A stretch of DNA of 64,000 bases. Origin: a virus. Shown one piece after another: positions 16,060-63,835 of the stretch. A program made the position numbers and the translations under genes. Under the pieces are notes generated by a model. The model ran no database searches, was not told where the DNA came from, and saw only the letters and a program-made list of their open reading frames with translations. The stretch spans positions 19,873-83,872 of the IMG/VR virus record IMGVR_UViG_3300026311_000001. One strand, given 5' to 3'. Position 1 is the stretch's first letter. Each line of letters begins with the position of its first letter.

Positions 16060-16068
16060 TATCTAAGA

Positions 16069-17132: not shown

Positions 17133-17161
17133 AAAAAGTTTTCATATATAATTGAAAATTA

Positions 17162-17200
17162 TTTATATGACGGAGCGTAAAACCCACAGGTCTTTGGTCA
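17162..17200 (+). repeat. degenerate left-end remnant of the TAGTTCAC-type TnpB element family
   Basis: ATTTATATGACGGAGCGTAAAACCCA closely matches ATTTATAAAACGGAGCGTAAAACCCA at 63742-63767. Confidence 0.4.
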
Positions 17201-17214
17201 AAACATAAAATTAG

Positions 17215-24444: not shown

Positions 24445-24590
24445 GTGAACTACCCACCCACGCCAAAGGCGATGGGATGGGCTTCATGGGTCAAAGCTCC
24501 TTCTACTGAAGGCAACGTACCATGATTTTTTAGTGTATGTTCCGTACACAAATGATTGTTTAAAGCAAAATTTTTGATATTTATGGAAGC
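24445..24590 (-). ncRNA. omega-RNA (reRNA) scaffold of element 1, extent approximate
   Basis: The 3' end of tnpB plus the right end form hairpins (CCTTCAGTAGAAGG; CCCAUCCCAUCGC/GCGUGGGUGGG with two bulged U). Guide would be TGCCCCACAATTTCACCTAA (24444..24425). Confidence 0.5.
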
Positions 24591-25628: not shown

Positions 25629-25747
25629 ATTGCAAATATACAAAATTTACAGAAACATACTAATTAATTTAAATAAATTATCTTGTATTGGGTCGCTTTT
25701 ATCCCACCCACAGCAAAGCTGATGAGTGGGCTTTCGCTCCTAATGTG

Positions 25748-25822: not shown

Positions 25823-26100
25823 CGTGTTCTGTTTCCGATTTGACTCGGATTGATCCCCATCGGGATTGTTTAAGAACCGTTTGTCATTTTTCAGACCAAT
25901 CTCAACACTAAGAGTTTCCTCTTTGTTTAATTGAGAATTCACAGAGCAAAGGACTTGGGAAGTATCCCCTGGTGTGTTCTTTAACTTTTTCTTAAACTTC
26001 TGCATAAAACCTCTATTAAAATTTTAAGCTCCCTAATCAACCAATTACCCTTGAAAGTCACCTCTCAAGCCCTTCCCCTTTAGGGAAGGGTGATTGACTT
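25823..26100 (-). ncRNA. HEARO/IscB-omega-RNA-like structured RNA candidate, copy 2
   Basis: Immediately 5' of the PLMP fragment, as expected for IscB omega-RNA; homologous to 4103-4372 with hairpin covariation. Confidence 0.45.
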
Positions 26101-30570: not shown

Positions 30571-31764
30571 TTATGCTCCATTTTGTGAACTACCCACCCA
30601 CGCTAAAGCGATGGGATGGGCTTCATGGGTCAAAGCTCCTTCTAACGAAGGCAACGTACCATGATTTTTAAGTGTATGTTCCGTACACAATTTATTTAAT
30701 GCGAAATTTTTAATATTAACGGAAGCGTTAAGATCACGATTAAAAACAGAACCACATTCAGGACAAACCCATTCACGGTCTTTGAGTGTAAGTTCTTTGT
30801 TAATGTATCCGCACGCTGAACATGTTTTAGAGCTTGGTTCAAATCTCCCAATCCTTAGAATGTTTACACCGTTCCATTTTGCTTTATATTCAAGCATAGC
30901 AACAAACATTCCCCATGATACGTCAGAAATTGAACCTGCTAAACAGTGGTTCTTTAACATTCCAGAAATATTTAAGTCTTCCAAAGCAATAGATTGGTTC
31001 TCTCTTATTAACTCTGTACTGACCTTGTGCAAAAAGTCTTTTCTTTGGTTGGCTACTTTCTCATGTAGAATAGCTAACCGATGTTTACGCTTATTTGATT
31101 TGTGTCTTGAAAATTGTCGTTGCTGGTATTTTAAGCGATCTATTGATTTACGTAAGTACTTTGGATTGTCGTATTCTTTGCCATTTGAGGCAACAAGAAA
31201 AGATTTAATTCCTAAATCCACCCCTACTGTTGTTTCTTCATTAACTGGTTTTGATTGTTTTTCTACCTCGCCAGTTTCGCAAAGAATAGATACAAAATAT
31301 TTACCTGTTGGCGTTCTACTTATCGTAGCTTGTTTTATTTCTCCCTTTATCTGCCTATGTAATACAATATCAACACCCTTTTTAAACTTAGGAATAATAA
31401 GTTTGTCGTTATCAATTTTTATACTTTGTGGAATATTGAAAGACTGTTTTCCTCTACCCTTTTTCTTAAATTTAGGGAAATCAGTACGCCCCTTAAAGAA
31501 GTTTTCAAAAGCAGTGTTCATATTAACAATAGATTGTTGCAAAGACTGGCTATTAACTTCTTTTAACCATTCATTTTCTTTTTTTAAATCAGGGAGTCGT
31601 TTAACAAGGCTATACCAAGAATGGTTGGTTTTGTCTTTAGCGTATTCTGATTGTTTAAAAGCCAAAGCATTGTTATACACAAAGCGAGCGCAACCAATAT
31701 GTTTATTGATTAACTCAGCTTGTGGTGCTGTAGGATTCAAACGATATTTAAACGCTTTTAACAT
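30571..31764 (-). CDS. tnpB: TnpB RuvC nuclease (close paralogue of 24450..25628)
   Basis: MLKAFKYRLNPT.., VGVDLGIKSF, IALEDLNISGM, CSACGY..CPECG, NRDLNASVNI. Confidence 0.9.
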   Translation of the reverse strand: MLKAFKYRLNPTAPQAELINKHIGCARFVYNNALAFKQSEYAKDKTNHSWYSLVKRLPDLKKENEWLKEVNSQSLQQSIVNMNTAFENFFKGRTDFPKFKKKGRGKQSFNIPQSIKIDNDKLIIPKFKKGVDIVLHRQIKGEIKQATISRTPTGKYFVSILCETGEVEKQSKPVNEETTVGVDLGIKSFLVASNGKEYDNPKYLRKSIDRLKYQQRQFSRHKSNKRKHRLAILHEKVANQRKDFLHKVSTELIRENQSIALEDLNISGMLKNHCLAGSISDVSWGMFVAMLEYKAKWNGVNILRIGRFEPSSKTCSACGYINKELTLKDREWVCPECGSVFNRDLNASVNIKNFALNKLCTEHTLKNHGTLPSLEGALTHEAHPIALAWVGSSQNGA

Positions 31765-31869
31765 ATTGCAAATATACAATTTTTATATTAATTGTTATCT
31801 TTGTATAAGATTATTAACCATGCCTTACATCCAACCGACTGAAGATCGGTTGGTTTTACGGCATAAATT
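30585..31869 (-). mobile_element. TnpB-only IS200/IS605-like element 2
   Basis: Left end AATTTATGCCGTAAAACCA + hairpin ACCGATC..GTCGGTTGG, preceded by TTTAT (31874..31870); right-end hairpin + TAGTTCAC (30592..30585). Confidence 0.65.
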
Positions 31870-32009
31870 ATAAAATTTCATCGTCCCCAAAAATCCTCCT
31901 GAACATAGACCACAAAAACCTTATCCCTATGTAGAGATACCAAGAAAAGCAAAGGATTATCAAAATAATCCAGACAATTAATAGGATTGAAAGTGCTTGT
32001 ATCATATAC

Positions 32010-34347: not shown

Positions 34348-34617
34348 ATGAACCGAATACAAGAAGTATTAATTGAGCAGGGCAGAACGCAGGTATGGCT
34401 GTCCAAACAGCTTAACCGTAGCGATGAAACAATAAGCCGGTATTGCACAAATAAAATACAGCCGGATAATATTTATATGGAAAAAATAGCAAGCCTGCTG
34501 AACGTCCCTGTTGAAGTTCTCATAGTCAAACCATGCCCTGATTGTATGGGTAATATGATCTATAATGTGATAGAAAAACATTGGATATGTTTGAATTGTA
34601 AAAATGTAGTGGAATGA
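34348..34617 (+). CDS. XRE/Cro-type HTH regulator with C-terminal zinc ribbon
   Basis: GRTQVWLSKQLNRSDETISRYCTNK HTH; CPDC..CLNC. Confidence 0.6.
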   Translation: MNRIQEVLIEQGRTQVWLSKQLNRSDETISRYCTNKIQPDNIYMEKIASLLNVPVEVLIVKPCPDCMGNMIYNVIEKHWICLNCKNVVE

Positions 34618-35075
34618 AAAAGACACTAGCAAAGTATTTGAAAAAAGAAATGGTAAGCATAGACCCATTTGCGAACAAATGCAAATTAGCAAAAATTACC
34701 AATGATTTAAACCCTGAATACGATACGGATTACCATTTAGACGCTGTTGATTTTTTAAAGCAGTTTGAGGATAATTCAATTGATTTCGTTTTTTATGACC
34801 CACCATATTCATTAAGGCAGGTAAGCGAATGCTATAAAAATGTTGGAATACCTGTTACAATGGAAACCACGCAAAGCAGTTGGAGAACAAAGCACATAAA
34901 CGAAATTAGTCGAATACTAAAACCAAACGGGATTGTAATGTGCTTTGGGTGGAATAGTTCGGGTGTGGGTAAAAAACGAGGCACTGAATTAATCGAAGTG
35001 TTATTGGTTGCTCACGGTGGTAGCCACAATGATACAATTTGCACCGTAGAACGTAAGCCACCAAAGCTGTTTTAA
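34614..35075 (+). CDS. DNA methyltransferase (N6-A/N4-C class, DPPY)
   Basis: DFVFYDPPYSLRQ catalytic motif; small (153 aa). Confidence 0.6.
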   Translation: MKKTLAKYLKKEMVSIDPFANKCKLAKITNDLNPEYDTDYHLDAVDFLKQFEDNSIDFVFYDPPYSLRQVSECYKNVGIPVTMETTQSSWRTKHINEISRILKPNGIVMCFGWNSSGVGKKRGTELIEVLLVAHGGSHNDTICTVERKPPKLF

Positions 35076-35129
35076 CATTGCTGGTAATGTATCAAGTGTA
35101 TATGACGTAAAAAAAGCTAACACCAAACT

Positions 35130-36074
35130 ATGAACGAAGCACTAAAGGCATTTGAATTTAAAACCGAAGGGGAGGGAATTAATGTACTATCTCTTTTCGA
35201 TGGGATGTCGTGTGGGCAAATTGCATTGCAGAAACTTGGTGTAAAAGTTAAAAACTATTTTGCCTCTGAGATTAAACCACACGCCATAAAAGTAACTCAA
35301 CACAATTTCCCTGATACAATCCAGGTAGGTGATGTTACAAAACTACACGGTGAGTCATTTCCAAAAATAGACTTGCTAATAGGTGGCTCACCTTGTCAGG
35401 ATTTTAGCAGGGGTAATGCAATACGTGATGGATTGAATGGGATTAAATCAGGGCTTTTCTTTGAATACTTACGGCTAAAAGCTGAATTAAATCCTACCTA
35501 TTGGCTACTTGAAAATGTAGTGATGAGTGATGCTGATTATTTCACCATTAGCAACTACATGAAAACCGAACCAGTAAGGATTAATTCGGCTTTGATTTCT
35601 GCTCAATTACGTGACCGCCTTTATTGGACAAACGTAGGTCCGGAATACTTCGACTTATTTGGTAGCCGTAAGTGTGTAATACCACAACCAAAAGATAAAG
35701 GAATACTACTTAAACACATTTTAGAAAGTGGATATACTGATAGAGAAAAAAGCAGAGCATTACTTGAAAGTGATAGCCGACCATTACGGACACTTGAAAA
35801 AATGTGGCATAGATATTCTGATACAGGATTTACAACTGTGGTATTTGAAAGCCCTGATTTAGATTGGCAAAAAGGATTGAGATACTTTACACAAACTGAA
35901 TTAGAAAGACTACAAACTGTACCCGAAGGATACACCTCAATTTTGAAACGTAATGACGCAGCGTGTTTACTTGGTGATGGTTGGACTGTTGATGTTATTG
36001 CTCATATCTTGTCTTTCATGCGCGTGGGGGTTTTAAATTCAAATGCCTTACCCGAACTACAATATGAAACATGA
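35130..36074 (+). CDS. DNA (cytosine-5) methyltransferase
   Basis: LSLFDGMSCG (motif I), GGSPCQDFS (IV), LLENV (VI). Confidence 0.85.
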   Translation: MNEALKAFEFKTEGEGINVLSLFDGMSCGQIALQKLGVKVKNYFASEIKPHAIKVTQHNFPDTIQVGDVTKLHGESFPKIDLLIGGSPCQDFSRGNAIRDGLNGIKSGLFFEYLRLKAELNPTYWLLENVVMSDADYFTISNYMKTEPVRINSALISAQLRDRLYWTNVGPEYFDLFGSRKCVIPQPKDKGILLKHILESGYTDREKSRALLESDSRPLRTLEKMWHRYSDTGFTTVVFESPDLDWQKGLRYFTQTELERLQTVPEGYTSILKRNDAACLLGDGWTVDVIAHILSFMRVGVLNSNALPELQYET

Positions 36075-36090
36075 ACTCAATAGCTTTTTT

Positions 36091-36116
36091 TATGGCATAT
36101 ACACGTTGTTATGTGC
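36091..36116 (+). repeat. attC-like GTT-side half-site
   Basis: 3' arm GGCATATACAC + GTTATGTGC. Possible partner arm GTGTATATGAC at 35096-35106 after TTTTAAC (35070-35076), which would enclose the C5-MTase gene; tentative. Confidence 0.4.
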
Positions 36117-36240
36117 TGTAAACCGTGAGCGTATGGCAAGCCCAACATGTGCGGTGGGAATGGATTTGAAGCATTGCATATACGGCTGGTATATGCTGTG
36201 CGGCCTCCGGCAGGGGTTGGGCTTATTGAGGAGGTTTATT

Positions 36241-36376
36241 GCACATAACGTTGAGTGTAACCGCATGTAGCGGATTAGAAAGTAATAACCTATCAAATTA
36301 TACGAATATGAATAAAGAGCAGAACACTTCGCAAACCACAGAACCCGCTATTGCGGTTGACACTGTGTTAGGCAAC
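36241..36376 (+). repeat. attC-like imperfect palindrome (136 bp)
   Basis: GCACATAAC; arms GTTGAGTGTAACCGCATGTAGCGG / CCGCTATTGCGGTTGACACTGT; GTTAGGCAAC = revcomp of 36569-78. Confidence 0.65.
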
Positions 36377-36565
36377 GTACTTTATTTACCTGAATTGGTA
36401 ATGAGTTGGAAATCTTTAAATGTAGATAATTTTGGTGTTAAACTACCAATTACAACATATCCAGGGATGGGTAAATATTGGATACCTGTATTTGAAAGCA
36501 TTGAAGAATGCAAAAAAGAATATCCTGACAGTAAGGTGATAATTATAAAACAAGGGCAATGGTAG
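36308..36565 (+). CDS. hypothetical cassette protein
   Basis: Start MNKEQ in the palindrome loop; ORF track 36239 start unlikely. Confidence 0.45.
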   Translation: MNKEQNTSQTTEPAIAVDTVLGNVLYLPELVMSWKSLNVDNFGVKLPITTYPGMGKYWIPVFESIEECKKEYPDSKVIIIKQGQW

Positions 36566-36568
36566 TAT

Positions 36569-36625
36569 GTTGCCTAACGGTTAGTATAAACGGTCGTTTT
36601 AATGCCGTTTATACATTGTTGTGTG
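36569..36625 (+). repeat. attC-like imperfect palindrome (57 bp, minimal form)
   Basis: GTTGCCTAAC; arms GGTTAGTATAAACGGTCG / TGCCGTTTATACATT; GTTGTGTG = revcomp of 37118-25. Confidence 0.7.
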
Positions 36626-36732
36626 TCTGTGGGCGGTGATTTAGTACTAAACTTTATTTGAAATACTGAACAAAAAAGAAAAAAGGGAGGGGGAAAACTT
36701 TATAGAGTACCCATTTATATAAATCTGATACA

Positions 36733-37041
36733 ATGAAAGTATTAACAGAAGGTCACAAGTACCAATTAAGCGGTTTTGAGAACGCTGAAAACACTCAAGA
36801 AATCCAATTCATTGAGAAAACGCCAATTGAAGGCACAACCGAATTGAAAACGGTAAATGATGGAACAACTAACGAGGAACTTCTTGAAGTCTTAATTGAC
36901 CGAATGAACTACTTACAAGGAAAATTCCCTTGCCGTGAAAATGCAATTGTAATTACTAAACTTCAAGAATCTTTGATGTGGTTAGAAAAAAGAACGTCTG
37001 ACCGTAAAAAGAGAAATGTAGAAGGTAAACAATTGGCTTAA
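36733..37041 (+). CDS. hypothetical cassette protein
   Basis: 102-aa ORF. Confidence 0.5.
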   Translation: MKVLTEGHKYQLSGFENAENTQEIQFIEKTPIEGTTELKTVNDGTTNEELLEVLIDRMNYLQGKFPCRENAIVITKLQESLMWLEKRTSDRKKRNVEGKQLA

Positions 37042-37117
37042 ATTTTTGTGAGCGTGGGCTTTTTCTTTTTTGATTATTAGCAGAAATGTTGATTTGAAAA
37101 ACGGATTTAGCCCATTG

Positions 37118-37415
37118 CACACAACAAGGCTGGCGGTATGGGTATGTTTGCCCAACGCACCGCACCGGACTTGAATTGAAATACTTAACTTAAAAATACG
37201 AGCGATGGCATATTATTCATTGAATACACAAATAAACAAAGGGAAATACAAAGGGAAAAAAGTAGAGGAACTTATTAAAAGTACCGAAGGGCAAAAATAT
37301 CTTCTTGCCTTACATATTGGAAACTATAATGTGTTTTTAAACCCAGAAGTATTCAGAGCGTTGGCAGATTACACTCGAACAAAGAACGGCAAATTACCTA
37401 TACCGCATGTTAGCG
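37118..37415 (+). repeat. attC-like site, long and weak (298 bp)
   Basis: CACACAAC; arms GGCGGTATGGGTATG / CCTATACCGC; GTTAGCG = revcomp of 37511-17. The 3' arm lies inside ORF 37205..37516. Confidence 0.35.
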
Positions 37416-37516
37416 ATACGGTTTGCGATAATCCGCATTGCGTAGACGGTGTAGTAGCTGAAATATATGGCGAAAAAGTTTACTGCGATAAATGTCAATC
37501 GCAAACTGGACGCTAA
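37205..37516 (+). CDS. hypothetical cassette protein with C-terminal Cys cluster
   Basis: ..CDNPHCVDG..YCDKC; stop TAA inside CGCTAAC. Confidence 0.45.
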   Translation: MAYYSLNTQINKGKYKGKKVEELIKSTEGQKYLLALHIGNYNVFLNPEVFRALADYTRTKNGKLPIPHVSDTVCDNPHCVDGVVAEIYGEKVYCDKCQSQTGR

Positions 37517-37637
37517 CGTTTGACGGTATCAGCAGTATTTGCTTCACTAAATTTAATTTTAAACACAAATGACAAAATTAGCAGAAAATAATCCACAAGG
37601 CACGGCAAATATTGCTGATGACTGTGTGTTAGCCACC
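37511..37637 (+). repeat. attC-like imperfect palindrome (127 bp)
   Basis: CGCTAAC; arms GTTTGACGGTATCAGCAGTATTTGC / GCAAATATTGCTGATGACTGTGT; GTTAGCCACC = revcomp of 37887-96. Confidence 0.65.
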
Positions 37638-37895
37638 GTACTTTTATGTGATTGCGGGTCGGCGGAGCATCAAATAATAATACATAAAGACAAAGATTTT
37701 TCAGAAGGATATAGAGAAGTGATACTTTGTCCACACTTAATCACATACCGTAATATTTTCAAACGGGTATTGGTTGCTTTTAAATACATATTTGGTTATA
37801 AATGCAAATATGGTGCGTGGGATAGTATCATAGTTTCGAAACAAAATTATCTACCATTAAAAGAAGCTGTGGAGTTTCTTGAGTATGGTGGCTAA
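37569..37895 (+). CDS. hypothetical cassette protein
   Basis: Its only Met codon lies inside the preceding palindrome loop; an in-frame GTG sits at the GTT core (37626). Confidence 0.45.
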   Translation: MTKLAENNPQGTANIADDCVLATVLLCDCGSAEHQIIIHKDKDFSEGYREVILCPHLITYRNIFKRVLVAFKYIFGYKCKYGAWDSIIVSKQNYLPLKEAVEFLEYGG

Positions 37896-38022
37896 CGGAC
37901 GAGCGTATGAGTAGTGGCGGATAGAATGCAACTACCTTTCGTAAAGCACAAAGATTGAAAAGAGAACTAAACTTAAATATTAACACAAAAACCGCCATTA
38001 CTTATACGCATTGTTAGCGGTA
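37887..38022 (+). repeat. attC-like imperfect palindrome (136 bp)
   Basis: GGTGGCTAAC (stop TAA inside); arms GGACGAGCGTATGAGTAGTGGCGG / CCGCCATTACTTATACGCATT; GTTAGCGGTA = revcomp of 38596-605. Confidence 0.7.
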
Positions 38023-38049
38023 TGTATGGGCGGATTAGAAGTACAAAAG

Positions 38050-38604
38050 ATGAAAAAATACGAAATAATTTACGCAGATCCAGCTTGGCAATATAAGACC
38101 AAAGAAAGCCTTGCAAAAACAAGTATTTTGAATGGGGAGCTTAACACCCATTATGGAACGATGACTATTGCTGAGTTGGGTGGGTTGCCGTTGGGGAGCA
38201 TTTCAGATAAAAACTCTATGCTGTTTATGTGGGTGGTTAGCCCGATGCTTGATGATGGAATTGAACTTATGAAAAAATGGGGCTTTAAATATAGCACAAT
38301 AGCTTTTATTTGGCACAAACAAAGGGCTAACCCTGGACATTATACTATGAGCGAATGTGAAATATGTTTAGTTGGAAGGCGGGGTAAAATACCAACTCCA
38401 AGAGGGGCAAGAAATGTTCGTCAGTTTTTATCTGAAATGCGTGGAAAACACTCTGCTAAACCAACTGAAATAAGAAATAGAATTGAACTTATGTTTCCAA
38501 CACAAACAAAATTAGAAATGTTTGCAAGGCAGAGTGCGAAGGGTTGGGATGCGTGGGGAAACGAGGTTGAAAATAGCATTGACCTTAGCCCATATTACCG
38601 CTAA
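38050..38604 (+). CDS. MT-A70-family N6-adenine DNA methyltransferase
   Basis: MKKYEIIYADPAWQY (DPPW-type motif), ..HSAKPTE.. Confidence 0.8.
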   Translation: MKKYEIIYADPAWQYKTKESLAKTSILNGELNTHYGTMTIAELGGLPLGSISDKNSMLFMWVVSPMLDDGIELMKKWGFKYSTIAFIWHKQRANPGHYTMSECEICLVGRRGKIPTPRGARNVRQFLSEMRGKHSAKPTEIRNRIELMFPTQTKLEMFARQSAKGWDAWGNEVENSIDLSPYYR

Positions 38605-38697
38605 CGGCTTGTGGTATGAAATCGAAACCGACACCACCACAGCCTGAACAATGCGACTAAGCAACCAGAGGTTTTGTTTTATACCACTTGTTAGCCA
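38596..38697 (+). repeat. attC-like imperfect palindrome (102 bp)
   Basis: TACCGCTAAC (stop inside); arms GGCTTGTGGTATGAAATCGAAACC / GGTTTTGTTTTATACCACTT; GTTAGCCA = revcomp of 39141-48. Confidence 0.7.
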
Positions 38698-38739
38698 TCT
38701 GGTGCGGTCAATTAGTAATAAACTTAATTTGAAAACGAA

Positions 38740-39147
38740 ATGGAAGCAAAAAATTTTAGAATTGGAAATTTACTTACAAGCAAAGGATGGGGAAATGTTG
38801 GGGCAATTGAAGGGATTGAAATTACACAAGATGGTTTTGAATTGAAAGTAAAAGGGTATGTGCATCCTTGGGAAAAAGACAAATATTTTGATTTAGCCCC
38901 AATTGAATTAGATGAAGAATGGCTTACAAAATTTGGATTTATTGAAGAAACTCCAAACGAGTTTATACTACGGAAACATCCGATAATTTTTAACATTCAT
39001 AGAAATTTAGTCACTGGTGAGTTTATGTCCAGAATGAACCCGAATTATTCAATATTAGTTAAATCTGTTCATCAATTGCAGAATTTATTTTTTGCGCTTA
39101 CAAAAGATGAACTTGAATTGAAAACGGAATGTAGCACTTGTGGCTAA
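38740..39147 (+). CDS. hypothetical cassette protein
   Basis: 135-aa ORF, stop inside TGGCTAAC. Confidence 0.5.
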   Translation: MEAKNFRIGNLLTSKGWGNVGAIEGIEITQDGFELKVKGYVHPWEKDKYFDLAPIELDEEWLTKFGFIEETPNEFILRKHPIIFNIHRNLVTGEFMSRMNPNYSILVKSVHQLQNLFFALTKDELELKTECSTCG

Positions 39148-39235
39148 CGGTCGGGTATTGGCGATGCCCGCACTTAGAAACTTTAAATTATAAACAAGCT
39201 GTCCAGCGGGTATTGCCAATACCTTGTTAGCAGCA
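39141..39235 (+). repeat. attC-like imperfect palindrome (95 bp)
   Basis: TGGCTAAC (stop inside); arms GGTCGGGTATTGGCGATGCCCGC / GCGGGTATTGCCAATACCTT; GTTAGCAGCA = revcomp of 39446-55. Confidence 0.7.
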
Positions 39236-39252
39236 GTAACGGATTAAAAAAA

Positions 39253-39441
39253 ATGGAACAGTCAAAACAAGAAAAAGAAATTTATGAGTTAGCAGAACTT
39301 TTGATGCAGTCTGAAAACTTAGAAGCAAGTGCAACTATCCTTCGTGATTTTGCTGAAAAGTGTTATCAAGAAGGGGCGGTTGATGCTCAAAAAGATGCAG
39401 CGGAAGAAATACGTGAACACTATGTCGAAGGTGGTCGGTAG
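39253..39441 (+). CDS. hypothetical small acidic cassette protein
   Basis: 62-aa ORF. Confidence 0.4.
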   Translation: MEQSKQEKEIYELAELLMQSENLEASATILRDFAEKCYQEGAVDAQKDAAEEIREHYVEGGR

Positions 39442-39445
39442 TTAT

Positions 39446-39581
39446 TGCTGCTAACGGTTGATTATATGAAACGGTGGGGATTTAAAGCCTTACATTTTCG
39501 CATCGTAATAAACTAACAACAAGGCAGGTGGGCTAAAAAGACGTATGACACCCCACTGTTTTATATAATGTGTTGTGCGCA
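39446..39581 (+). repeat. attC-like imperfect palindrome (136 bp)
   Basis: TGCTGCTAAC; arms GGTTGATTATATGAAACGGTGGGG / CCCCACTGTTTTATATAATGT. GTTGTGCGCA differs from its own AAC side but equals revcomp of 39794-803. Confidence 0.7.
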
Positions 39582-39589
39582 GTACGGTT

Positions 39590-39790
39590 ATGAAATTTGC
39601 AGTAACAGTTTTTAATACTGAAAGAGTTTCTTACGAAGAAATAAAAGACGTAGGACACACGAAAATTTTTAATGACACTGATAGTTTGAAAGATATAATT
39701 GAATGGGGAAACTCTATTCGTGCAAAAACCTATGATGGGCCAAAAACAGTTGATATAACAGAATTAAGATTCAGCAAGTTGTGTGAGTAG
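39590..39790 (+). CDS. hypothetical small cassette protein
   Basis: ATG at 39590 preferred over the GTG at 39575, which lies in the GTT core. Confidence 0.4.
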   Translation: MKFAVTVFNTERVSYEEIKDVGHTKIFNDTDSLKDIIEWGNSIRAKTYDGPKTVDITELRFSKLCE

Positions 39791-39793
39791 TAT

Positions 39794-39891
39794 TGCGCAC
39801 AACGGATGGGTATATGAAAAGTAGCCCAACCGCAAACTTTGAACAACGCACGAACCTTTCATGGGCTATTTTTTATATACCGTGTTAGCTG
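39794..39891 (+). repeat. attC-like imperfect palindrome (98 bp)
   Basis: TGCGCACAAC; arms GGATGGGTATATGAAAAGTAGCCCA / TGGGCTATTTTTTATATACCGT; GTTAGCTG = revcomp of 40764-71. Confidence 0.7.
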
Positions 39892-39923
39892 TCTGGTGCG
39901 GATTTTAAAAACAAAACTTTAAT

Positions 39924-40757
39924 ATGAAAAACGAACGTAGTAATAATATTTTTTTGAGCGGTGGCAAAAATGGTTTTGAAAAAAACAAAAACATCCTTTG
40001 GTATGGTGAATGCCTTCAGATGATGAAGCAAATACCTGACCAGAGTATAAACCTAATCTGCTGTGATTTACCCTATGGTGTGACTAAAAATAAATGGGAT
40101 TCATTAATTGACTTGGATTTGCTTTGGGAGCAATACGAAAGAGTAATAGTTGAAAATGGTGCAATAGTTCTTTTTGGACAAGATAAATTTTCTGCAAGGT
40201 TGATGCTTTCAAATGAGAAGCTACATAGATATAACTTGATATGGCAGAAAACCACACCAACAGGACATTTGAACGCTAAAAGAATGCCCTTAAGAAGCCA
40301 CGAAGATATATTGGTGTTTTACAAGAAATTACCAACATATAACCCACAAAAAACGACTGGACACAAAAGGAAGGTAAGCACAGCAAAGCATAAGCGAAAC
40401 TCAAAAAAGACAACCAATTACGGTGAACACGGATTGACAACTTATGATAGTACCGAACGCTACCCGAAAAGTGTTTTGACCTTTGCAACTGATAAACAGA
40501 AATCAGCATTACATCCAACACAAAAACCGCTGGAGTTGATTAAATATCTTGTAAAAACATATTCAAATGAAAATGATTGGGTACTTGATAATACTTGCGG
40601 AAGTAACACAACTGGACTTGCTTGCTTTGAATTAAACCGAAACTATATTGGAATTGAGAATGATTTTGATATGTACGAAATTTCAAAAGAGCGGGTGGGA
40701 GAAAAAAATATTATTACGGCTGATATGCACGAACCTTCAATTAAAACTGGAACGTAG
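39924..40757 (+). CDS. DNA methyltransferase (N4-C/N6-A, beta class)
   Basis: LICCDLPYGV catalytic motif; HPTQKPLELIKYLV; DNTCGSNTTG AdoMet motif. Confidence 0.8.
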   Translation: MKNERSNNIFLSGGKNGFEKNKNILWYGECLQMMKQIPDQSINLICCDLPYGVTKNKWDSLIDLDLLWEQYERVIVENGAIVLFGQDKFSARLMLSNEKLHRYNLIWQKTTPTGHLNAKRMPLRSHEDILVFYKKLPTYNPQKTTGHKRKVSTAKHKRNSKKTTNYGEHGLTTYDSTERYPKSVLTFATDKQKSALHPTQKPLELIKYLVKTYSNENDWVLDNTCGSNTTGLACFELNRNYIGIENDFDMYEISKERVGEKNIITADMHEPSIKTGT

Positions 40758-40763
40758 CACTTG

Positions 40764-40900
40764 CAGCTAACGGATTACGGCTATGAAGCGTTGCCGAGTA
40801 AAACGCCCTAACTTTCAAATTAAAAATAAAATGAATAAAGAGAACAAAACTTCGGATAAGCACGAACACGGCAATGATTTTATAGCCGATGTTATGCAAC
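40764..40900 (+). repeat. attC-like imperfect palindrome (137 bp)
   Basis: CAGCTAAC; arms GGATTACGGCTATGAAGCGTTGCCG / CGGCAATGATTTTATAGCCGAT; GTTATGCAAC = revcomp of 41041-50. Confidence 0.7.
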
Positions 40901-41049
40901 GTTTTTTAATTTATGCTGATGACTACATCACTTGGAACAAACAAAAAAATGACTGGAATCATTCTGATGAATTTACAGGCACTTACTTAGACGCTCACGA
41001 ATATGCCCGTTCAAAATATGGTAAGCGTTATACTTTAAATGTTGCATAA
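40831..41049 (+). CDS. hypothetical small cassette protein
   Basis: MNKENK leader start in the loop; alternative in-frame ATG inside the GTTATGC core at 40894. Confidence 0.4.
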   Translation: MNKENKTSDKHEHGNDFIADVMQRFLIYADDYITWNKQKNDWNHSDEFTGTYLDAHEYARSKYGKRYTLNVA

Positions 41050-41174
41050 CGTGTTGCAAATAAATATAGTACGATTATGAAAGAAAAAATTATCGAAATA
41101 GTAGGATTTAACATGGAACCCGAAAGGGCTGAACTTATTGCGCAGCGAGTATTGGATTTATTTGCTGTTATGCG
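41041..41174 (+). repeat. attC-like imperfect palindrome (134 bp)
   Basis: GTTGCATAAC (stop inside); arms GTGTTGCAAATAAATAT / GATTTATTTGCT; GTTATGCG = revcomp of 41376-83. Confidence 0.55.
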
Positions 41175-41382
41175 ACGTTTTAATTTTAGAATTGTAAAAG
41201 ACGTGAATAGAGATAAAAAACACCCAGGATGGGAAATGATTAATTACGGATTAGAAATTGATAATGAAATAGTATGTTGGTTTGCTTATGAACATCCACA
41301 AATGACATTAGAAGAAATTAAGTTGCAACAAAATAAAAGAGAATTATATGAAGAAATTGTGCGCAGGGTAAATGGCGCATAA
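41077..41382 (+). CDS. hypothetical cassette protein
   Basis: 101-aa ORF; in-frame ATG inside the GTTATGCG core at 41170. Confidence 0.45.
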   Translation: MKEKIIEIVGFNMEPERAELIAQRVLDLFAVMRRFNFRIVKDVNRDKKHPGWEMINYGLEIDNEIVCWFAYEHPQMTLEEIKLQQNKRELYEEIVRRVNGA

Positions 41383-41472
41383 CGGTTGAGGCTAAGAAAC
41401 GTAGCCTTGTAATCACGTTTCAAAATAGGCAGGAACTTGTCAGGCTATGTTTTTTAGCCTTTGTTACCGCCA
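41374..41472 (+). repeat. attC-like imperfect palindrome (99 bp)
   Basis: GGCGCATAAC (stop inside); arms GGTTGAGGCTAAGAAACGTAGCC / GGCTATGTTTTTTAGCCTTT; GTTACCGCCA = revcomp of 41947-56. Confidence 0.7.
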
Positions 41473-41488
41473 GTTAATTTTAAAAGTC

Positions 41489-41746
41489 ATGAGTAATTAT
41501 TTGGAATTTCAAGAAATTAAATCAGATTATTTTAATGCTGATGGTGAATTTTACGGAGGATTCACAGGATGCTCGCCTGTAAAAAATATTATGGAAAAAA
41601 TGAACAAAACTATTGAGGAAATGGCAGAACATTCAAAACGCCTTGTTGCTCAAATTGAATCTTTTGACTTTATAAACAAAGAACCATTAAATTTAAAAGA
41701 TAGTGAACATTTTATTAACTTAAAAAAATATATAGATTATGTGTAA
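41489..41746 (+). CDS. hypothetical cassette protein
   Basis: MSNYLEF start preferred over the 41447 start, which lies in the palindrome arm. Confidence 0.4.
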   Translation: MSNYLEFQEIKSDYFNADGEFYGGFTGCSPVKNIMEKMNKTIEEMAEHSKRLVAQIESFDFINKEPLNLKDSEHFINLKKYIDYV

Positions 41747-41945
41747 ATATAAAAAATCAAACCCGCAACCTAAAAACATTCCATATCCAAGAGTTCAATT
41801 TGAATCTGAGTGTGGATTTAAACTTATGTTAACAGAAGGATATGACCAAGATTGGCATAACCACAAAAAATACGGACAGCCATTATTGCCAAAAGGTAAA
41901 TGCTTAAAGTGTCAGTCTGAAATTGAAGTAGTGCCGTCTTTTTAA
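41739..41945 (+). CDS. hypothetical small protein with a CxxC pair
   Basis: 68-aa ORF, ..CGF...GKCLKCQSE.. Confidence 0.4.
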   Translation: MCKYKKSNPQPKNIPYPRVQFESECGFKLMLTEGYDQDWHNHKKYGQPLLPKGKCLKCQSEIEVVPSF

Positions 41946-41946
41946 T

Positions 41947-42082
41947 TGGCGGTAACGGTGGGTGTAGCTGCCAGTGGCGGCAAGTAACCGAAAAGCATAA
42001 TTAGAATTATAAACTTTAAAATACTTACAAAATGTCAAACGAAGAACAACACCAGCCATTGCAGCTACACGATGTTAGCCGC
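41947..42082 (+). repeat. attC-like imperfect palindrome (136 bp)
   Basis: TGGCGGTAAC; arms GGTGGGTGTAGCTGCCAGTGGC / GCCATTGCAGCTACACGAT; GTTAGCCGC = revcomp of 42408-16. Confidence 0.65.
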
Positions 42083-42403
42083 TGCCCTTCTGATGTTGAA
42101 ATGATTGAATCATTAAATAAGAAGGTTGAAGAAAAACAACGAAAACTTAATGACCTGGAAAACAAATTCAGGGAATGCCGGGAAGAGTACAGGCAACTTA
42201 TATCTTTTCAAATCGCTCAATTAAGAGCAGTACAGATGCTTTACGATGTGATGAAAAACGGAAATACTCACTATCAAAAGGCTTTATTTGCTGAAATAGC
42301 TAAGGAATCGCTTGGCCGAGAAATAGGTTCACTTATTGAACGCTATCAAAACACTAAATGGAAATTTCGATTAGGTGACGAACCTGACGAACTACCGTTT
42401 TAG
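42032..42403 (+). CDS. coiled-coil protein with SSB-like acidic tip
   Basis: Ends ..GDEPDELPF*. Confidence 0.45.
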   Translation: MSNEEQHQPLQLHDVSRCPSDVEMIESLNKKVEEKQRKLNDLENKFRECREEYRQLISFQIAQLRAVQMLYDVMKNGNTHYQKALFAEIAKESLGREIGSLIERYQNTKWKFRLGDEPDELPF

Positions 42404-42407
42404 GGTT

Positions 42408-42542
42408 GCGGCTAACGTTGGGTATATGACCAGTAGCGGATTAAATAGTAATAACTTATCAAATTAGTAGAATGAATATAGAAAGCACAGAACTTCAAAA
42501 CAGCACCGCCCCCGCTATTGGTTATATACCGGGTTATGCACA
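42408..42542 (+). repeat. attC-like imperfect palindrome (135 bp)
   Basis: GCGGCTAAC; arms GTTGGGTATATGACCAGTAGCGG / CCGCTATTGGTTATATACCGG; GTTATGCACA = revcomp of 43555-64. Confidence 0.7.
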
Positions 42543-43551
42543 GGTTTTTTCTCATCGTTTTCCTTATCGTTGGACTTTGAAAGATGCCAACTTTACAAAG
42601 GATAAGGGCAAAGTATTTAGTTGCTTTGCTTGTGGTGGTGGTTCAACAATGGGTTACAAATTAGCGGGGTTTGATGTGATAGGATGCAATGAGATTGACC
42701 CTAAAATGATGGAAGCATACCGAACTAACCACAACCCCAAATACAGCTATTTAGAACCGATACAAACCTTTAAACTTAGAAAGGATTTACCAAAGGAATT
42801 ATACAACCTTGATATTTTGGACGGTTCACCACCTTGTAGCAGTTTTTCAATGGCTGGAAATAGAGAAAAAGACTGGGGTAAAGATAAGGTTTTTAGAGAA
42901 GGTCAAGCGATGCAAGTTTTAGATACTTTGTTTTTTGATTTTATTGATTTGGCGAAGAAATTACAGCCGAAAGTTGTGGTTGCTGAAAATGTGAAAGGGT
43001 TGCTTTTAGGCGAAGCGAAGAAATATGTAAGACAAATATACCGTGAGTTTGACCAAGCAGGATATTACTGCCAACATTGGCTTTTAGATGCTTCAAAAAT
43101 GGGTGTACCTCAAAGACGTGAGCGAGTGTTTTTTATTTGTTTACGTAAAGATTTAGCTGAACCTTTTTTGTATCAGCAAGATTTGTTTACGGTTAATCCT
43201 AAATTGGAATTGAATTTTAATGAGCCGGAAATACCTATAAAGCAATTTGCAAAAGGTATTGCAAAAAAAGAAAGTCAAAATTATTCAGAAGATAGATTTG
43301 GCGATGTAATGTTAGACTTGAATAGAGCAAGCAACACAATAGCGACAGACATAAATAGATATTGGCTTGATGAAAATACGTTGATTGATAAAAACACAGT
43401 TAGCTTAATAGGTAGTTATCCTATTGATTACAACCACTTGGAATTTAACAACCCTCAGTATTTAATCGGAATGAGCGTTCCGCCTGTAATGACAGCAAAC
43501 ATAGCGACTGAAATTTATTCGCAATGGCTCTCAAAATTGGCACGGTCTTAA
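42472..43551 (+). CDS. DNA (cytosine-5) methyltransferase
   Basis: FSCFACGGGSTMGY (I), GSPPCSSFSMAG (IV), ENVKGLL (VI), QRRERVFFI (VIII). Confidence 0.85.
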   Translation: MNIESTELQNSTAPAIGYIPGYAQVFSHRFPYRWTLKDANFTKDKGKVFSCFACGGGSTMGYKLAGFDVIGCNEIDPKMMEAYRTNHNPKYSYLEPIQTFKLRKDLPKELYNLDILDGSPPCSSFSMAGNREKDWGKDKVFREGQAMQVLDTLFFDFIDLAKKLQPKVVVAENVKGLLLGEAKKYVRQIYREFDQAGYYCQHWLLDASKMGVPQRRERVFFICLRKDLAEPFLYQQDLFTVNPKLELNFNEPEIPIKQFAKGIAKKESQNYSEDRFGDVMLDLNRASNTIATDINRYWLDENTLIDKNTVSLIGSYPIDYNHLEFNNPQYLIGMSVPPVMTANIATEIYSQWLSKLARS

Positions 43552-43554
43552 ACT

Positions 43555-43689
43555 TGTGCATAACGGCTGCGGGTATGACCAGTGGCGGATTACGAGTACA
43601 AAACTTTCAAAATACGATACAGAATGAACGAAGCAAATAACTTTCAAATAGCAGAAAACCCGCCATTGGTTATACCCGATGTTAGCAAC
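43555..43689 (+). repeat. attC-like imperfect palindrome (135 bp)
   Basis: TGTGCATAAC; arms GGCTGCGGGTATGACCAGTGGCGG / CCGCCATTGGTTATACCCGAT; GTTAGCAAC = revcomp of 44372-80. Confidence 0.7.
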
Positions 43690-44367
43690 TGCCCTTTTTC
43701 TATTGTCTTTAACGAGGATTGTGTGCAGGGTTTAAAACGCTTTGCAGATAATTACTTTGATTTGGCAATAGTTGACCCGCCTTATGGAATTGGAGCAGAT
43801 AAAGCCCAAAATAACGCTGCTATGCAAAGAATAAAAGCAGAAGGTAAAAGCAAAGCTGGGAGAGGTTGGAAATTATACGCTGATACTGATTGGGATAATG
43901 AAATACCAACCTTTGAATATTGGGAGCAGTTGTTTAGGGTATCTAAAAATCAAATTGTGTGGGGTGGCAATTACTTTACGGAATATCTGCCCCCATCAAT
44001 GGGTTGGGTAATGTGGGATAAAGGGCAAAGAGATTTTAGCCTTGCCGATGGGGAACTTGCATGGACAAGTTTTAACAAAGCCTTACGAATATTTGAAATG
44101 AGTAGAGGAAAGGCACTTGCTAAAAATAACGAGCAAGGGGGCAGATTTCACCCAACTCAAAAACCTGAAATGCTTTATAGTTGGATTTTGCAGAATTACG
44201 CAAAGCAGGGGGATTTGATTTTAGATACCCATTTAGGAAGTGGAAGTTCAAGAATAGCAGCGTATAAAGGCGGGTTCAACTTTGTAGGATTTGAAATAAA
44301 CGAACATTATTACGAGAAGCAAGAAAAGCGTTTTAAAAACTTCTCGGCACAGCAGCGGCTCTTTTAG
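43624..44367 (+). CDS. N6-adenine/N4-cytosine DNA methyltransferase (DPPY)
   Basis: LAIVDPPYGIG, HPTQKPEMLYSWIL, DTHLGSGSS; start MNEANNF preferred over the GTG at 43582. Confidence 0.8.
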   Translation: MNEANNFQIAENPPLVIPDVSNCPFSIVFNEDCVQGLKRFADNYFDLAIVDPPYGIGADKAQNNAAMQRIKAEGKSKAGRGWKLYADTDWDNEIPTFEYWEQLFRVSKNQIVWGGNYFTEYLPPSMGWVMWDKGQRDFSLADGELAWTSFNKALRIFEMSRGKALAKNNEQGGRFHPTQKPEMLYSWILQNYAKQGDLILDTHLGSGSSRIAAYKGGFNFVGFEINEHYYEKQEKRFKNFSAQQRLF

Positions 44368-44371
44368 GGTT

Positions 44372-44405
44372 GTTGCTAACATATGTATAAGCGCACTTTA
44401 CAGAC
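44372..44405 (+). repeat. attC-like AAC-side half-site (last of + array)
   Basis: GTTGCTAAC + ATATGTATAAGCGCAC... The only complementary partner in the window is the inverted copy at the right window edge. Confidence 0.4.
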
Positions 44406-44548
44406 GTAAATAATCATGTAATACAGTAACAATGGCACTTACAGAAAAACAAAAATATAATATTCAACAACTCTCCATTGAAGATACAATAGAAATACTT
44501 GACGAGTGTAAAGAAAGACTTGGATTAGTCTCGCAGGGAGATTATAAA
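44378..44548 (+). repeat. inverted repeat, left copy (171 bp)
   Basis: 100% identical to the reverse complement of 63743-63747 plus 63836 to window end. Confidence 0.9.
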
Positions 44549-44638
44549 AAGATAACAGCGTATCCATATTCCCGTGAAAATTTAGTACAGGATATGAAGA
44601 AAGGAAAGATCAGGTATTGGGAGTTGTACCCCATTTAA
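44432..44638 (+). CDS. hypothetical small protein; 5' part duplicated in inverted orientation at window end
   Basis: 68-aa ORF; bases 44432-44543 recur as the reverse complement at 63836-63947. Confidence 0.4.
   Translation: MALTEKQKYNIQQLSIEDTIEILDECKERLGLVSQGDYKKITAYPYSRENLVQDMKKGKIRYWELYPI
44551..44632 (+). repeat. possible attC-like site between small ORF and tnpB unit (arms weak)
   Basis: GATAAC (44551-56) ... GTTGTACCCC (44623-32) = revcomp of 45917-26; inner-arm pairing poor. Confidence 0.3.
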
Positions 44639-45926
44639 GGACGCAAAGAGCGACCATAAACAGTTCCTCCTTCATAGATTCGACTAATGCCGACATCTCC
44701 AGAGGCTCTTCCGACAGTACCTGCCGTGAGTAAGTTTTGTTTCTGTAATCCGAATTTTAGAATATTATTTGCAGCAAGAAAATCTCTATTGTTTTCAATA
44801 CCGCATTTACTACAAGTCCAAACTCGGTCAGATAATTTTAATTCTTTATTTATTTCACCACAACCGCACATTTTAGAACTTGGTTCAAATCTTCCTATTT
44901 CTAAATAGTTACCGCCTTGTTCCTGCATCTTGTATTGCAACAAGGTATAAAATCTACCTAATCCTAAATCCGAAATAGATTGTGCAAGTTTGTGGTTTCT
45001 CATCATACCATATATGTTTAAGTTTTCACACGCAACCGTATTGTACTGTTTGGCTATCGCAGTAGTTATTTTGTGTAGGAAATCTAATCTCTGATTTGAT
45101 ATTTTCTCGTGAAGCAAAGCCACTTTTAAGTTTGCTTTTTTTCTGTTTGAGCTTCCTTTTTGCTTTTTTGAAGCTCTACGTTGTAATACTTTTAATCTTT
45201 GTATTGAGTTTTTTAAGTGTTTTGGATTTTCTATTTCAGTACCATCAGATAAAGTTGCAAATGTTTTTATTCCAGTATCAATACCAACAGCATTAACCTT
45301 CGATATAGGCTTTTGCTTCACTTTAACATCAGGTAATTCAACCGTTATTGAAACAAAGAACTTTCCAGTTGGTTTTTTCTCTATTGCTGCTGTTTTTATT
45401 TTGCCGTCAAACGTTCTGCTAATCTTAGTTTTTATCCATCCAATTTTATTTACAGATACTTTATTATTTTCAAAATCTACTTTCGTGTTTTGCGGAAATC
45501 CGACACTGTGAGTCCCTTTGTGCTTGCTCTTAAATTTTGGGAAGCCCTTCTTTTGCTTAAAGAAACGTGTAAATGCTTTGTCCATATTTACAATGGATTG
45601 CTGCAAACTTTGAGCAACAGATAGCTTTAACCACTCATATTCGGGATTCTTTTTTAACTGAGTAAGTTCGGTCATTAAAGTAAAAGCGGATATGCTTTTC
45701 TTTTCTGATTGGTATTCCTTTATACGTCTATCCAATGCCCAATTGTATACAAAACGAGCATTTCCCAGCATCTGATTTAATTGCTGTTCCTGCTCTTTGT
45801 TCGGATAAACCCTATATCGAAAACCTTTTACCATAATGCAAATATATAAAAAATATTTTAATTCCTACACAAAAGCATTAATTATTTTAGAACTCAAGAA
45901 CGCAAAGAATAAAAACGGGGTACAAC
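44623..45926 (-). mobile_element. tnpB unit bounded by perfect 10-bp GTTGTACCCC/GGGGTACAAC inverted cores
   Basis: Cores at 44623-32 and 45917-26; flanked by attC-like hairpin 45917-45975. Confidence 0.55.
44635..45834 (-). CDS. tnpB: TnpB RuvC nuclease (third subtype)
   Basis: MVKGFRYRVYPN.., AVGIDTGIKTFATLS, TVACENLNIYGM, CGCGE..CSKCG, NRDFLAANNI. Confidence 0.9.
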   Translation of the reverse strand: MVKGFRYRVYPNKEQEQQLNQMLGNARFVYNWALDRRIKEYQSEKKSISAFTLMTELTQLKKNPEYEWLKLSVAQSLQQSIVNMDKAFTRFFKQKKGFPKFKSKHKGTHSVGFPQNTKVDFENNKVSVNKIGWIKTKISRTFDGKIKTAAIEKKPTGKFFVSITVELPDVKVKQKPISKVNAVGIDTGIKTFATLSDGTEIENPKHLKNSIQRLKVLQRRASKKQKGSSNRKKANLKVALLHEKISNQRLDFLHKITTAIAKQYNTVACENLNIYGMMRNHKLAQSISDLGLGRFYTLLQYKMQEQGGNYLEIGRFEPSSKMCGCGEINKELKLSDRVWTCSKCGIENNRDFLAANNILKFGLQKQNLLTAGTVGRASGDVGISRIYEGGTVYGRSLRP

Positions 45927-45975
45927 ACGGTATAAACCGCATTAAAACGACGGCTTATACTCATCGTTAGGAGGA
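45917..45975 (-). repeat. attC-like minimal palindrome, opposite polarity
   Basis: Minus strand TCCTCCTAACGATGAGTATAAGCCGTCGTTTTAATGCGGTTTATACCGTGTTGTACCCC. 43/50 identical to 36573-36622, with compensatory arm changes. Confidence 0.7.
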
Positions 45976-63780: not shown

Positions 63781-63835
63781 CGTGGATGCCGTGAAACCCG
63801 AAGCCCATTTGTCTTTAGCAAATGGGTAGTTCACA
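63748..63835 (+). mobile_element. 88-nt miniature element (two hairpins, no ORF) of the TAGTTCAC family
   Basis: TTTAT|AAAACGGAGCGTAAAACCCAGTCATCGCTTTAGCGTGGATG..CCCATTTGTCTTTAGCAAATGGGTAGTTCAC|; interrupts the right copy of the 171-bp repeat. Confidence 0.6.

Follow-up and report, generated by a model that had tools for sequence, protein, structure and literature searches.

We have analysed a 64,000-nucleotide (nt) stretch of viral DNA (the window; positions 19,873 to 83,872 of IMG/VR virus record IMGVR_UViG_3300026311_000001) that belongs to a Bacteroidota phage with a genome of about 83 kb (ENA contig of 83,393 nt), and near-identical contigs are present in many samples. The accessory region of this phage is an integron-like array of gene cassettes, as the first-pass annotation of the sequence had proposed, in which neighbouring genes are separated by hairpin sites with AAC and GTT outer cores (Table 1). 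DNA methylases predominate in the cargo, which comprises six of them (one Methyltransf_11-like, two C5, one MT-A70, and two N6/N4), one TnpB, and about ten small proteins that belong to no family; six small cassette open reading frames (ORFs) run against Pfam gave no significant match. The gene at 36733–37041 matches an Acb2/Tad1-like family at 25.8 bits, below the cut-off of 27, and a precomputed match to the same Pfam family is listed for the corresponding gene in two other loci (L250 and L253; loci used for comparison are denoted by L numbers). The role of the cargo is probably anti-restriction or counter-defence.

The array had initially been taken to start at 35069. Homology with L001 and L002 shows instead that 34614–35075 is a truncated cassette and that the array starts at about 34635; the right core of this cassette is mutated to CATTGCTGGTAAT (35076–35088) in place of ..GGTAAC, and its complete form in L001 and L002 reads GTTACCAGCAG...CTGCTGGTAAC. 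The left limit of variability is at 34634/34635, from comparison with L255, and the right limit is the GTT at 45966–45968, from comparison with L241 and L242. These edges are where most assemblies of near-identical phages break. We also note that in the opening ORF of the array seven backbone codons (MKKTLAK; 34614–34635) are fused to the middle of a methylase cassette, and that in L255–L258 the same codons join a different 112-residue ORF, again at a joint away from an AAC/GTT core. L240, L245, and L248 (first ~210 nt, compared with the window at ~45998) are near-identical phages without the array at that position, and have a G+C-rich, possibly structured segment upstream of an adaptor-like gene instead.

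The most direct sign of a cassette organisation is the relationship between the two ends of each unit. All 17 of the GTT/AAC end pairs recognised at the outset are exact reverse complements over 7–10 nt. Shuffled sequences lend weight to the longer pairs and little to the shorter ones: 18 pairs of at least 9 nt are seen against 2.9 expected (with a shuffle maximum of 9), whereas pairs of at least 7 nt are frequent by chance, with 56 seen and about 36 expected in 11-kb shuffles. The bases that follow GTT complement the AAC side of their own unit over a mean of 6.2 nt (minimum 4), compared with a mean of 1.36 nt for other units and 0–4 nt for the other core of their own site, and none of 100,000 permutations reached the observed pairing sum. 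The units thus have specific complementary ends beyond chance. Integron cassettes recombine within the core triplet, so that the two ends of a cassette once formed one site; both the permutation test and an empty site with a single GTT (described below) agree with this. Many cassettes terminate exactly at the TAA stop of ..TAAC, as at 37893, 38602, 39145, 41047, and 41380, and one unit (36117–36240) is without a credible ORF, both as first described.

Between units the DNA folds as long hairpins, 53–133 nt in length in the window, and most of the inter-unit palindromes noted earlier are ordinary hairpins of this kind. The exceptions are sites 0 and 3, whose loops enclose a gene or most of one, and ‘site 16’ (44374–44629), which is no hairpin and consists of a conserved terminal junction and a small ORF. 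In an alignment of 25 sites from the window, two viral contigs, and the Polaribacter phage P12002L, the AAC and GTT cores are invariant (25/25), compensatory double changes are seen at 17 of 22 predicted arm pairs, and the constant asymmetry of a G after AAC and a T before GTT is present in 23/25. The arms carry two further G.T pairs, 5 nt apart (TATGA/TTATA and AGT/ATT). Of 341 sites, taken from all loci, 298 and 318 respectively pair a G on the 5’ arm with a T at these two positions, and the reversed orientation is seen in at most 12 sites at any position. In the same 341 sites the spacers are 4–6 nt on the 5’ side and 1–4 nt on the 3’ side. The sites therefore have the architecture of attC, with an imperfect palindrome, AAC/GTT outer cores, arms conserved in structure, and a variable loop. 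The marks of strand asymmetry are the G.T pairs, the AAC-G/T-GTT ends, and two to three extra unpaired bases on the 5’ side, which take the form of mismatches and a spacer; clear single-base bulges are found in a few sites only (site 1 and site 13). With 16 co-oriented sites the array is also a cluster in the sense of two or more attC sites in a row and no integrase nearby, provided that the sites count as attC.

Folding of both strands, which had been proposed as a way to reveal strand bias, shows that at the sites tested the plus strand forms the more stable fold (-13.2 versus -10.6, -13.2 versus -8.9, and -21.6 versus -16.1 kcal/mol) because of the fixed asymmetry in the sites, and that the preference is reversed at the last site. 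The last unit, which carries tnpB, is accordingly inverted as had been suggested, and the covariance scores of its site agree (Table 1). The covariance model was built from loop-trimmed sites; it detects short-loop sites, misses the class of ~122 nt, and was used for polarity only. Sites were found with an arm-pairing scanner of our own that returns 0.2 matches per 64 kb in shuffled sequence. A search of the window against Rfam returned no attC-like family, and its matches are two HEARO RNAs only.

The polarity of the sites is unusual in relation to the genes. The bottom strand of the aadA7 attC reads ..TCTAAC-G...T-GTTAGA, and its top strand AAC-A...C-GTT (Qi et al. 2023, Table S3, PMC9892861). 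By the AAC-G...T-GTT mark the plus strand of the window corresponds to the bottom-like strand of attC, and gene orientation independently agrees. In phage and viral arrays, 24 ORFs lie on this bottom-like strand and one on the opposite strand, whereas in bacterial arrays of the same site family four lie on the same strand and 70 on the opposite one. The bacterial arrays are therefore canonical, and the phage cassettes have the gene inverted. In an integron cassette the ORF has no promoter of its own, lies on the top strand ahead of the attC, and is expressed from a common promoter at attI; in the phage arrays the hairpin precedes the gene. At least eight cassettes have the start codon and the first 15–25 codons inside the hairpin loop, with the ORF crossing the right arm and the GTT. 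Promoters may also lie in the loops, and inspection by eye for sigma-70 and Bacteroidota -7/-33 motifs there gave no clear match.

This intimate connection of hairpins with gene starts raises the prospect that the array is a fossil, with cassettes assembled elsewhere, in the host or in an integrase-encoding phage, and with hairpins whose sole present function is to punctuate the expression of a fixed accessory operon, through start codons, terminators, or RNA processing sites. Start codons within loops would fit such a role, as would the closure of the transcribed strand’s hairpins by G.U-compatible pairs and the lack of a recombinase in the ~83-kb genome. However, the G.T pairs occur at fixed positions and in one orientation, which suggests recognition by a protein over tolerance of wobble in RNA. 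Moreover, the bacterial hairpins are antisense to the genes, and a role in coding-strand RNA therefore cannot be the common function.

Comparisons with related phages, which had been put forward as a way to look for gain or loss of units at the cores, bear directly on mobility. In L241 and L242, which lack the TnpB cassette, an empty site (...TATTGGGAGTTAGGAGG...) joins window position 44625 to 45966 through a single GTT. The TnpB cassette (1343 nt) has thus been inserted precisely into a secondary GTT and is bounded by GTT on each side. In the same two contigs the last cassettes that precede the conserved junction AAC ATATGTATAAGCGCAC are different ones, and the sequences diverge precisely at the AAC core; L255–L258 leave the window sequence at 34634, beyond which they carry other cassettes. 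Phage backbones unrelated to this one also share cassettes and hairpins with the window array, and the shared segments break off at the cores (L001 and L002 among the examples). Gain or loss of a cassette precisely at the triplet is thus seen, and near-identical phages are polymorphic for cassettes. Set against the notion of a fossil array, these precise differences between near-identical backbones, together with the breakage of most assemblies at the array edges, outweigh the complete identity of the first ~10 cassettes in two other samples (L250 and L253), and we consider it unlikely. That identity does imply that cassette turnover is not fast.

The same comparisons speak to the suggestion that homologous recombination between similar stem-loops shuffles the modules with no site-specific enzyme, as has been proposed for the promoter-early stem-loops of T4-type phages. 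Same-type hairpins do recur across many genomes at 80–96% identity and could seed such exchange. The TnpB cassette and its target, however, have only GTT in common, neighbouring hairpins in the window array differ in sequence, and unit-specific complementary ends are not expected from such a process, which we regard as very unlikely here.

Where in the site the crossover falls is less simple than first supposed. The complementarity of the ends alone is compatible with a crossover at either core, GTT or AAC. Exchange had been assigned to the GTT or its interior; a position inside the conserved triplet holds, as the single GTT in L241 and L242 indicates, and the core that acts on the plus strand appears to be AAC. 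Segments in common with other contigs have their left limit at AAC, cover the hairpin, and continue into the unit that follows it, with leftward extension of no more than 12 nt (42413–42561 in L105, at 96%; 43561–43804 in L092 and L087; 43561–43697 in L002; and 38602–38702 in L101, twice). For site 14 the identity with L105, 96%, spans from AAC to 22 nt beyond GTT, and the first 29 nt of the site 11 hairpin (as far as the end of the L001 locus) stand behind a different cassette in L001. Where similar hairpins occur in different loci, the right flank alone is also similar in 41 cases and the left flank alone in seven. We have therefore rejected a plus-strand crossover at GTT; from these alignments the crossover is best placed at AA|C on the plus strand, which is the canonical G|TT on the complement. 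The hairpin travels with the downstream gene, and a cassette therefore consists of C + hairpin + GTT + gene + ..AA. The start codons lie within hairpin loops because the hairpin belongs to the gene that follows.

Sites of this type are widespread. A scan with a degenerate pattern derived from the left half of the site identified 27 viral contigs with co-oriented arrays, with up to seven detected sites per locus, and at least 120 bacterial loci, almost all of them from Bacteroidota among the matches listed; the taxa among these matches are Flavobacteriaceae, Cyclobacteriaceae, Bacteroidales, Saprospiraceae, and Ignavibacteriales. The bacterial arrays are dense (up to 12 sites in 8 kb) and co-oriented, have the same chain of paired ends, and contain sites that are homogeneous within a genome. 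Phage P12002L has at least six sites of the family on its gene strand in our own scan. The window phage itself has a second, smaller array on the minus strand, mostly past the window end, with five units (L235, 10902–12638).

The window, together with the flanks that make up the rest of the ~83-kb genome, yielded neither a tyrosine recombinase homologue nor a box-II motif, in agreement with the earlier remark that the window does not contain the recombinase. Recombinases do adjoin related arrays. At loci chosen only for their sites, three tyrosine recombinases of one family, with 37–42% mutual identity, lie beside arrays (L106, L146, and L228). In a reverse search from recombinase homologues, genes of Ekhidna and Reichenbachiella are directly followed by arrays (L229 and L230), and in three phage-like contigs of 34, 348, and 279 kb (L232–L234) arrays of seven, ten, and eight detected sites end just upstream of the recombinase gene. 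The recombinase is at the array end in all seven of the loci where both are visible (L106/L232, L146, L228, L229, L230, L233, and L234), and in L229 and L230 it is co-oriented with the cassettes. The protein is colinear with archaeal XerA over its full length, and Xer proteins are its closest solved relatives. Recombinases beside related arrays score 151–225 bits on the integron-integrase model TIGR02249, for which the cut-off is 265, and match in two stretches. By these alignments the array-associated protein is Xer-like and lacks the IntI-specific insertion. The odds are somewhat in favour of this Xer-like family being the cassette enzyme.

The ends of the arrays beside recombinases read ..TAAC TATTATATATAAA in the phage-like contigs and ..TATA GTTAGGC on the bacterial coding strand. 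The window junction, TGCTAAC ATATGTATAAGCG, resembles the recombinase-side ends in L232–L234 and the reverse complement of the L229 and L230 array starts, and may be an attI-like end. A phage-encoded recombinase shared between P12002L and the window phage was considered and rejected; the two have in common only methylase cassettes and a NinG/Rap-like gene. We also observe a gene of ~135 residues, conserved in all three Cytophagales-type loci, that lies divergently 76–77 nt upstream of the recombinase (L229, 9515–9925; L230, 9518–9925; L231, 9517–9924, minus strand); it has no significant Pfam match and may be an accessory factor. The array recombinase of L228 (5760–7496, minus strand) is 578 residues long, with an N-terminal extension of ~300 residues.

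A different type of enzyme, a single-strand HUH transposase (Y1, IS200/IS605-type TnpA) or another hairpin-specific nuclease, might be considered as the mover, since Y1 transposases act on DNA hairpins, five TnpB genes are present in the genome, and a Y1_Tnp gene lies just beyond the window. In IS200/IS605 elements, which lack terminal inverted repeats, the left and right ends each have a subterminal hairpin of their own; such elements are not known to share a site with their neighbours or to form arrays. The window units differ in that one hairpin is shared between neighbours and the inverted ends are 7–10 nt long, and the unit with TnpB acts like a cassette that brings an attC-type hairpin of its own. 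Integrons characteristically have AAC/GTT cores, paired ends, and a recombinase at the end of the array, and L229 and L230 have a tyrosine recombinase and no Y1 gene among their called genes. We find a HUH mover extremely improbable.

In our proposal, the plus-strand cassette comprises C + hairpin + GTT + gene body + ..(T)AA, with a loop that often contains the start codon and first codons, and an Xer/IntI-like tyrosine recombinase would most likely excise and insert cassettes by cutting within the triplet (AA|C on the plus strand, G|TT on the complement). The site would most likely be folded as single-stranded DNA. Because the phage encodes no such recombinase, the enzyme would have to come in trans, perhaps from a chromosomal array of the host or from a co-infecting phage, and the cargo would let the phage reassort counter-defence genes. 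We think it likely that the array represents a site-specific cassette system of integron type, from a lineage confined to Bacteroidota and their phages. It is not an integron in the strict sense, as the integrase of a complete integron, a tyrosine recombinase with the IntI-specific additional domain, is missing and the phage cassette layout is inverted.

Several observations weigh against this integron-type interpretation. The window phage lacks a recombinase, which leaves activity of the array in this genome putative; the link between recombinase and array rests on seven loci, and ~48 residues of VchIntIA (175–261, the IntI-specific insertion region) have no counterpart in the array recombinase. 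The sites show mismatches and an asymmetric spacer and not clear bulged extrahelical bases, and the long-loop sites have modest folding z-scores (-1.1 to -2.4). The left edge of the array at 34634/34635 falls outside any AAC/GTT core, and the identity of the first cassettes in L250 and L253 points the same way. Finally, P12002L_attC1, which is of the same type as window site 2 and is the sole tested site of the family, failed with IntI1.

Arrays of this kind in phages are not without precedent, although the first-pass annotation knew of none. Clusters of two to three attC sites without an integrase have been reported in virulent phages, including Polaribacter phage P12002L, with methylase cargo (Qi et al. 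2023, PMC9892861). P12002L_attC1 was the only site in that study to give no verified attC x attI1 product with IntI1, and in P12002L only one site of the family was flagged, by HattCI alone (PMC9892861). These clusters resemble the window array in having attC-like sites in an integrase-less phage and DNA methylase cargo, but have two to three sites per phage, compared with ~17 cassettes and a second array here; in P12002L our own scan finds at least six further family sites not listed by the pipeline of Qi et al. Their report does not deal with the orientation of the cassette genes, with loops that contain start codons, with a connection to the chromosomes of Bacteroidota, or with an Xer-like recombinase. 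For Bacteroidetes, the IntegronFinder 2.0 paper gives lone integrases only and one complete integron (Salinibacter), a 2024 preprint places Bacteroidota among clades previously found without integrons, and a classification of tyrosine recombinases recognises an ‘integron-like’ subgroup with incomplete conservation of the insertion. The literature searched contains no description of Bacteroidota attC arrays, of their Xer-like recombinase, of phage-like contigs with that recombinase at the end of an array, or of inverted phage cassettes, which is not proof of absence.

Among known systems, the sedentary chromosomal integrons (the Vibrio superintegron with its VCR sites) are similar in their long co-oriented arrays of single genes, AAC/GTT hairpins that are homogeneous within a genome, a crossover in the core triplet, and a tyrosine recombinase at one end beside a GTT-containing junction. 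They differ in that the array recombinase here is without the IntI insertion and, in L229 and L230, has the same orientation as the cassettes, and in that the family sites have conserved G.T pairs and a spacer asymmetry of 2–3 nt and not the bulged bases described for attC. XerA and XerC/D are the closest solved relatives of the array recombinase; Xer enzymes act on double-stranded dif sites to resolve dimeric chromosomes, whereas the array recombinase genes sit at the ends of cassette arrays, including those in phage-like contigs. The T4-type promoter-early stem-loop cassettes also have phage accessory genes bracketed by stem-loops with expression signals and shuffled as modules, and we know of no AAC/GTT cores, unit-specific complementary ends, or dedicated recombinase described for them.

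Integrons are reported to be nearly absent from Bacteroidota, and the window array leads to hundreds of family sites, in chromosomes of Bacteroidota as well as in phages, with a recombinase family of their own. On balance we lean, by a small measure, towards the broader view that Bacteroidota and their phages hold a large integron lineage missed by tools and literature, with G.T-marked attC sites, an Xer-like integrase without the IntI insertion, inverted phage cassettes with an upstream attC that carries the gene start, swapping of anti-restriction and anti-defence genes among phages that are not related, and some phage-like contigs of 279–348 kb that encode the integrase. If confirmed, this would widen the definition of an integron, as the IntI insertion would no longer be required, would offer a way in which Bacteroidota phages of the sea and the gut could rapidly reassort their methylase and anti-defence genes, and would explain why metagenomic assemblies break at these phage regions. 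The recombinase and its site form a pair that is open to testing, and the cassettes may carry their own expression signals.

Table 1. Features of the cassette array and of the end of a second array in the window (window coordinates).
Feature	Position	Strand	Remarks
Whole cassette array	34635–45968	+	1 truncated cassette, 16 intact plus-strand cassettes, terminal junction, 1 inverted cassette
5’-truncated methylase cassette (Methyltransf_11-like)	34614–35088	+	Pfam; gene 34614–35075
Site 0, split/large-loop	35080–36114	+	C5 DNA methylase gene 35130–36074 in loop (PF00145)
Site 0 arms	35096–35107; 36096–36104	+	Left GTGTATATGACG, right CATATACAC, then tandem GTT GTT (36105–36110); fit family consensus
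Unit 1	36108–36249	+	142-nt G+C-rich non-coding tail of C5 methylase cassette; no credible ORF
Site 1 (131 nt)	36243–36373	+	Loop ATG at 36308 opens 85-residue ORF 36308–36565
Site 2 (53 nt, short type)	36572–36624	+	Covariance model 29.0 bits plus versus 8.6 minus
Acb2/Tad1-like cassette gene	36733–37041	+	Weak hairpin-domain similarity; candidate anti-defence sponge
Site 3 (297 nt)	37119–37415	+	Arms GGCGGTATGGGTA and TACCTATACCGCA surround most of ORF 37205–37516
Site 4	37511–37634	+	Loop ATG at 37569 opens 108-residue ORF
Site 5	37890–38019	+	Followed by MT-A70 methylase cassette (38050–38604)
Site 6	38599–38696	+	Twice in viral contig L101, 88–90% identity, amid other cassettes
Site 7	39142–39232	+	DNA fold -21.6 kcal/mol plus (z -5.5) versus -16.1 minus
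Site 8	39449–39578	+	
Site 9	39797–39890	+	Covariance model 31.6 bits plus versus 12.4 minus; followed by N6/N4 methylase cassette (39924–40757)
Site 10	40765–40897	+	Loop ATG at 40783 opens 88-residue ORF; 84% identity in L117, site only
Site 11	41044–41173	+	ATG at 41077 in loop
Site 12	41377–41469	+	Covariance model 32.4 bits on plus
Site 13	41950–42080	+	ATG at 42032 in loop
Site 14	42410–42539	+	Loop ATG at 42472 opens C5 methylase 42472–43551
Site 15	43558–43687	+	Loop ATG at 43624 opens N6/N4 methylase 43624–44367
Terminal junction, candidate attI-like end	44374–44431	+	TGCTAAC ATATGTATAAGCGCAC...; conserved in L241, L242 behind different last cassettes
Small ORF after junction	44432–44638	+	68 residues here, 75 when uninterrupted; 3’ end replaced by TnpB cassette insertion
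Inverted TnpB cassette (1343 nt)	44626–45968	-	TnpB gene 44635–45834 (-) and short hairpin site
Last site, inverted, site-2-type hairpin	45920–45972	-	Covariance model 26.2 bits minus versus 8.5 plus; folding
End of second array	63835–64000	-	Inverted 100% copy of 44378–44543 (junction and first 37 codons of small ORF)

Some further features of the array and the genome are worth noting. An Xis-like fold had been suspected for the small ORF after the junction and is unsupported, with no significant match to Pfam. Unit 1 (36108–36249) might be a structured RNA or a cassette remnant. The gene of the inverted cassette is assigned to TnpB Pfam families in L239. It is one of five TnpB-like genes in the ~83-kb phage, all on the minus strand (2978–4102, 24450–25643, 27203–28357, 30571–31779, and 44635–45834), and the cassette form is seen only for this last one. 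Long antisense ORFs (24556–25722, 27251–28405, and 30782–31873) overlap three of them. The Rfam matches to HEARO RNAs, at 4140–4371 and 25848–26098 on the minus strand (117 and 104 bits), each lie just upstream of a TnpB-like gene (2978–4102 and 24450–25643, also on the minus strand); HEARO is normally tied to HNH/IscB-type ORFs. A 99-residue ORF (4352–4651, minus strand) with a precomputed Resolvase match (PF00239) adjoins the TnpB-like gene at 2978–4102 and could be an IS607-like remnant. The Y1_Tnp gene (IS200/IS605 TnpA-like) encodes 98 residues and is at 20046–20342 of L235, in the same phage genome, ~10 kb past the right end of the window.

A right-flank gene used as query against viral contigs gave no match. 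Elsewhere in the window, positions 15502–23800 contain a cluster of sugar-nucleotide and glycosyltransferase genes. Two of them are GDP-mannose dehydratase/epimerase-like and one encodes a glycosyltransferase of family 2, and there is a weak match to Glyco_transf_7C that falls below the cut-off.

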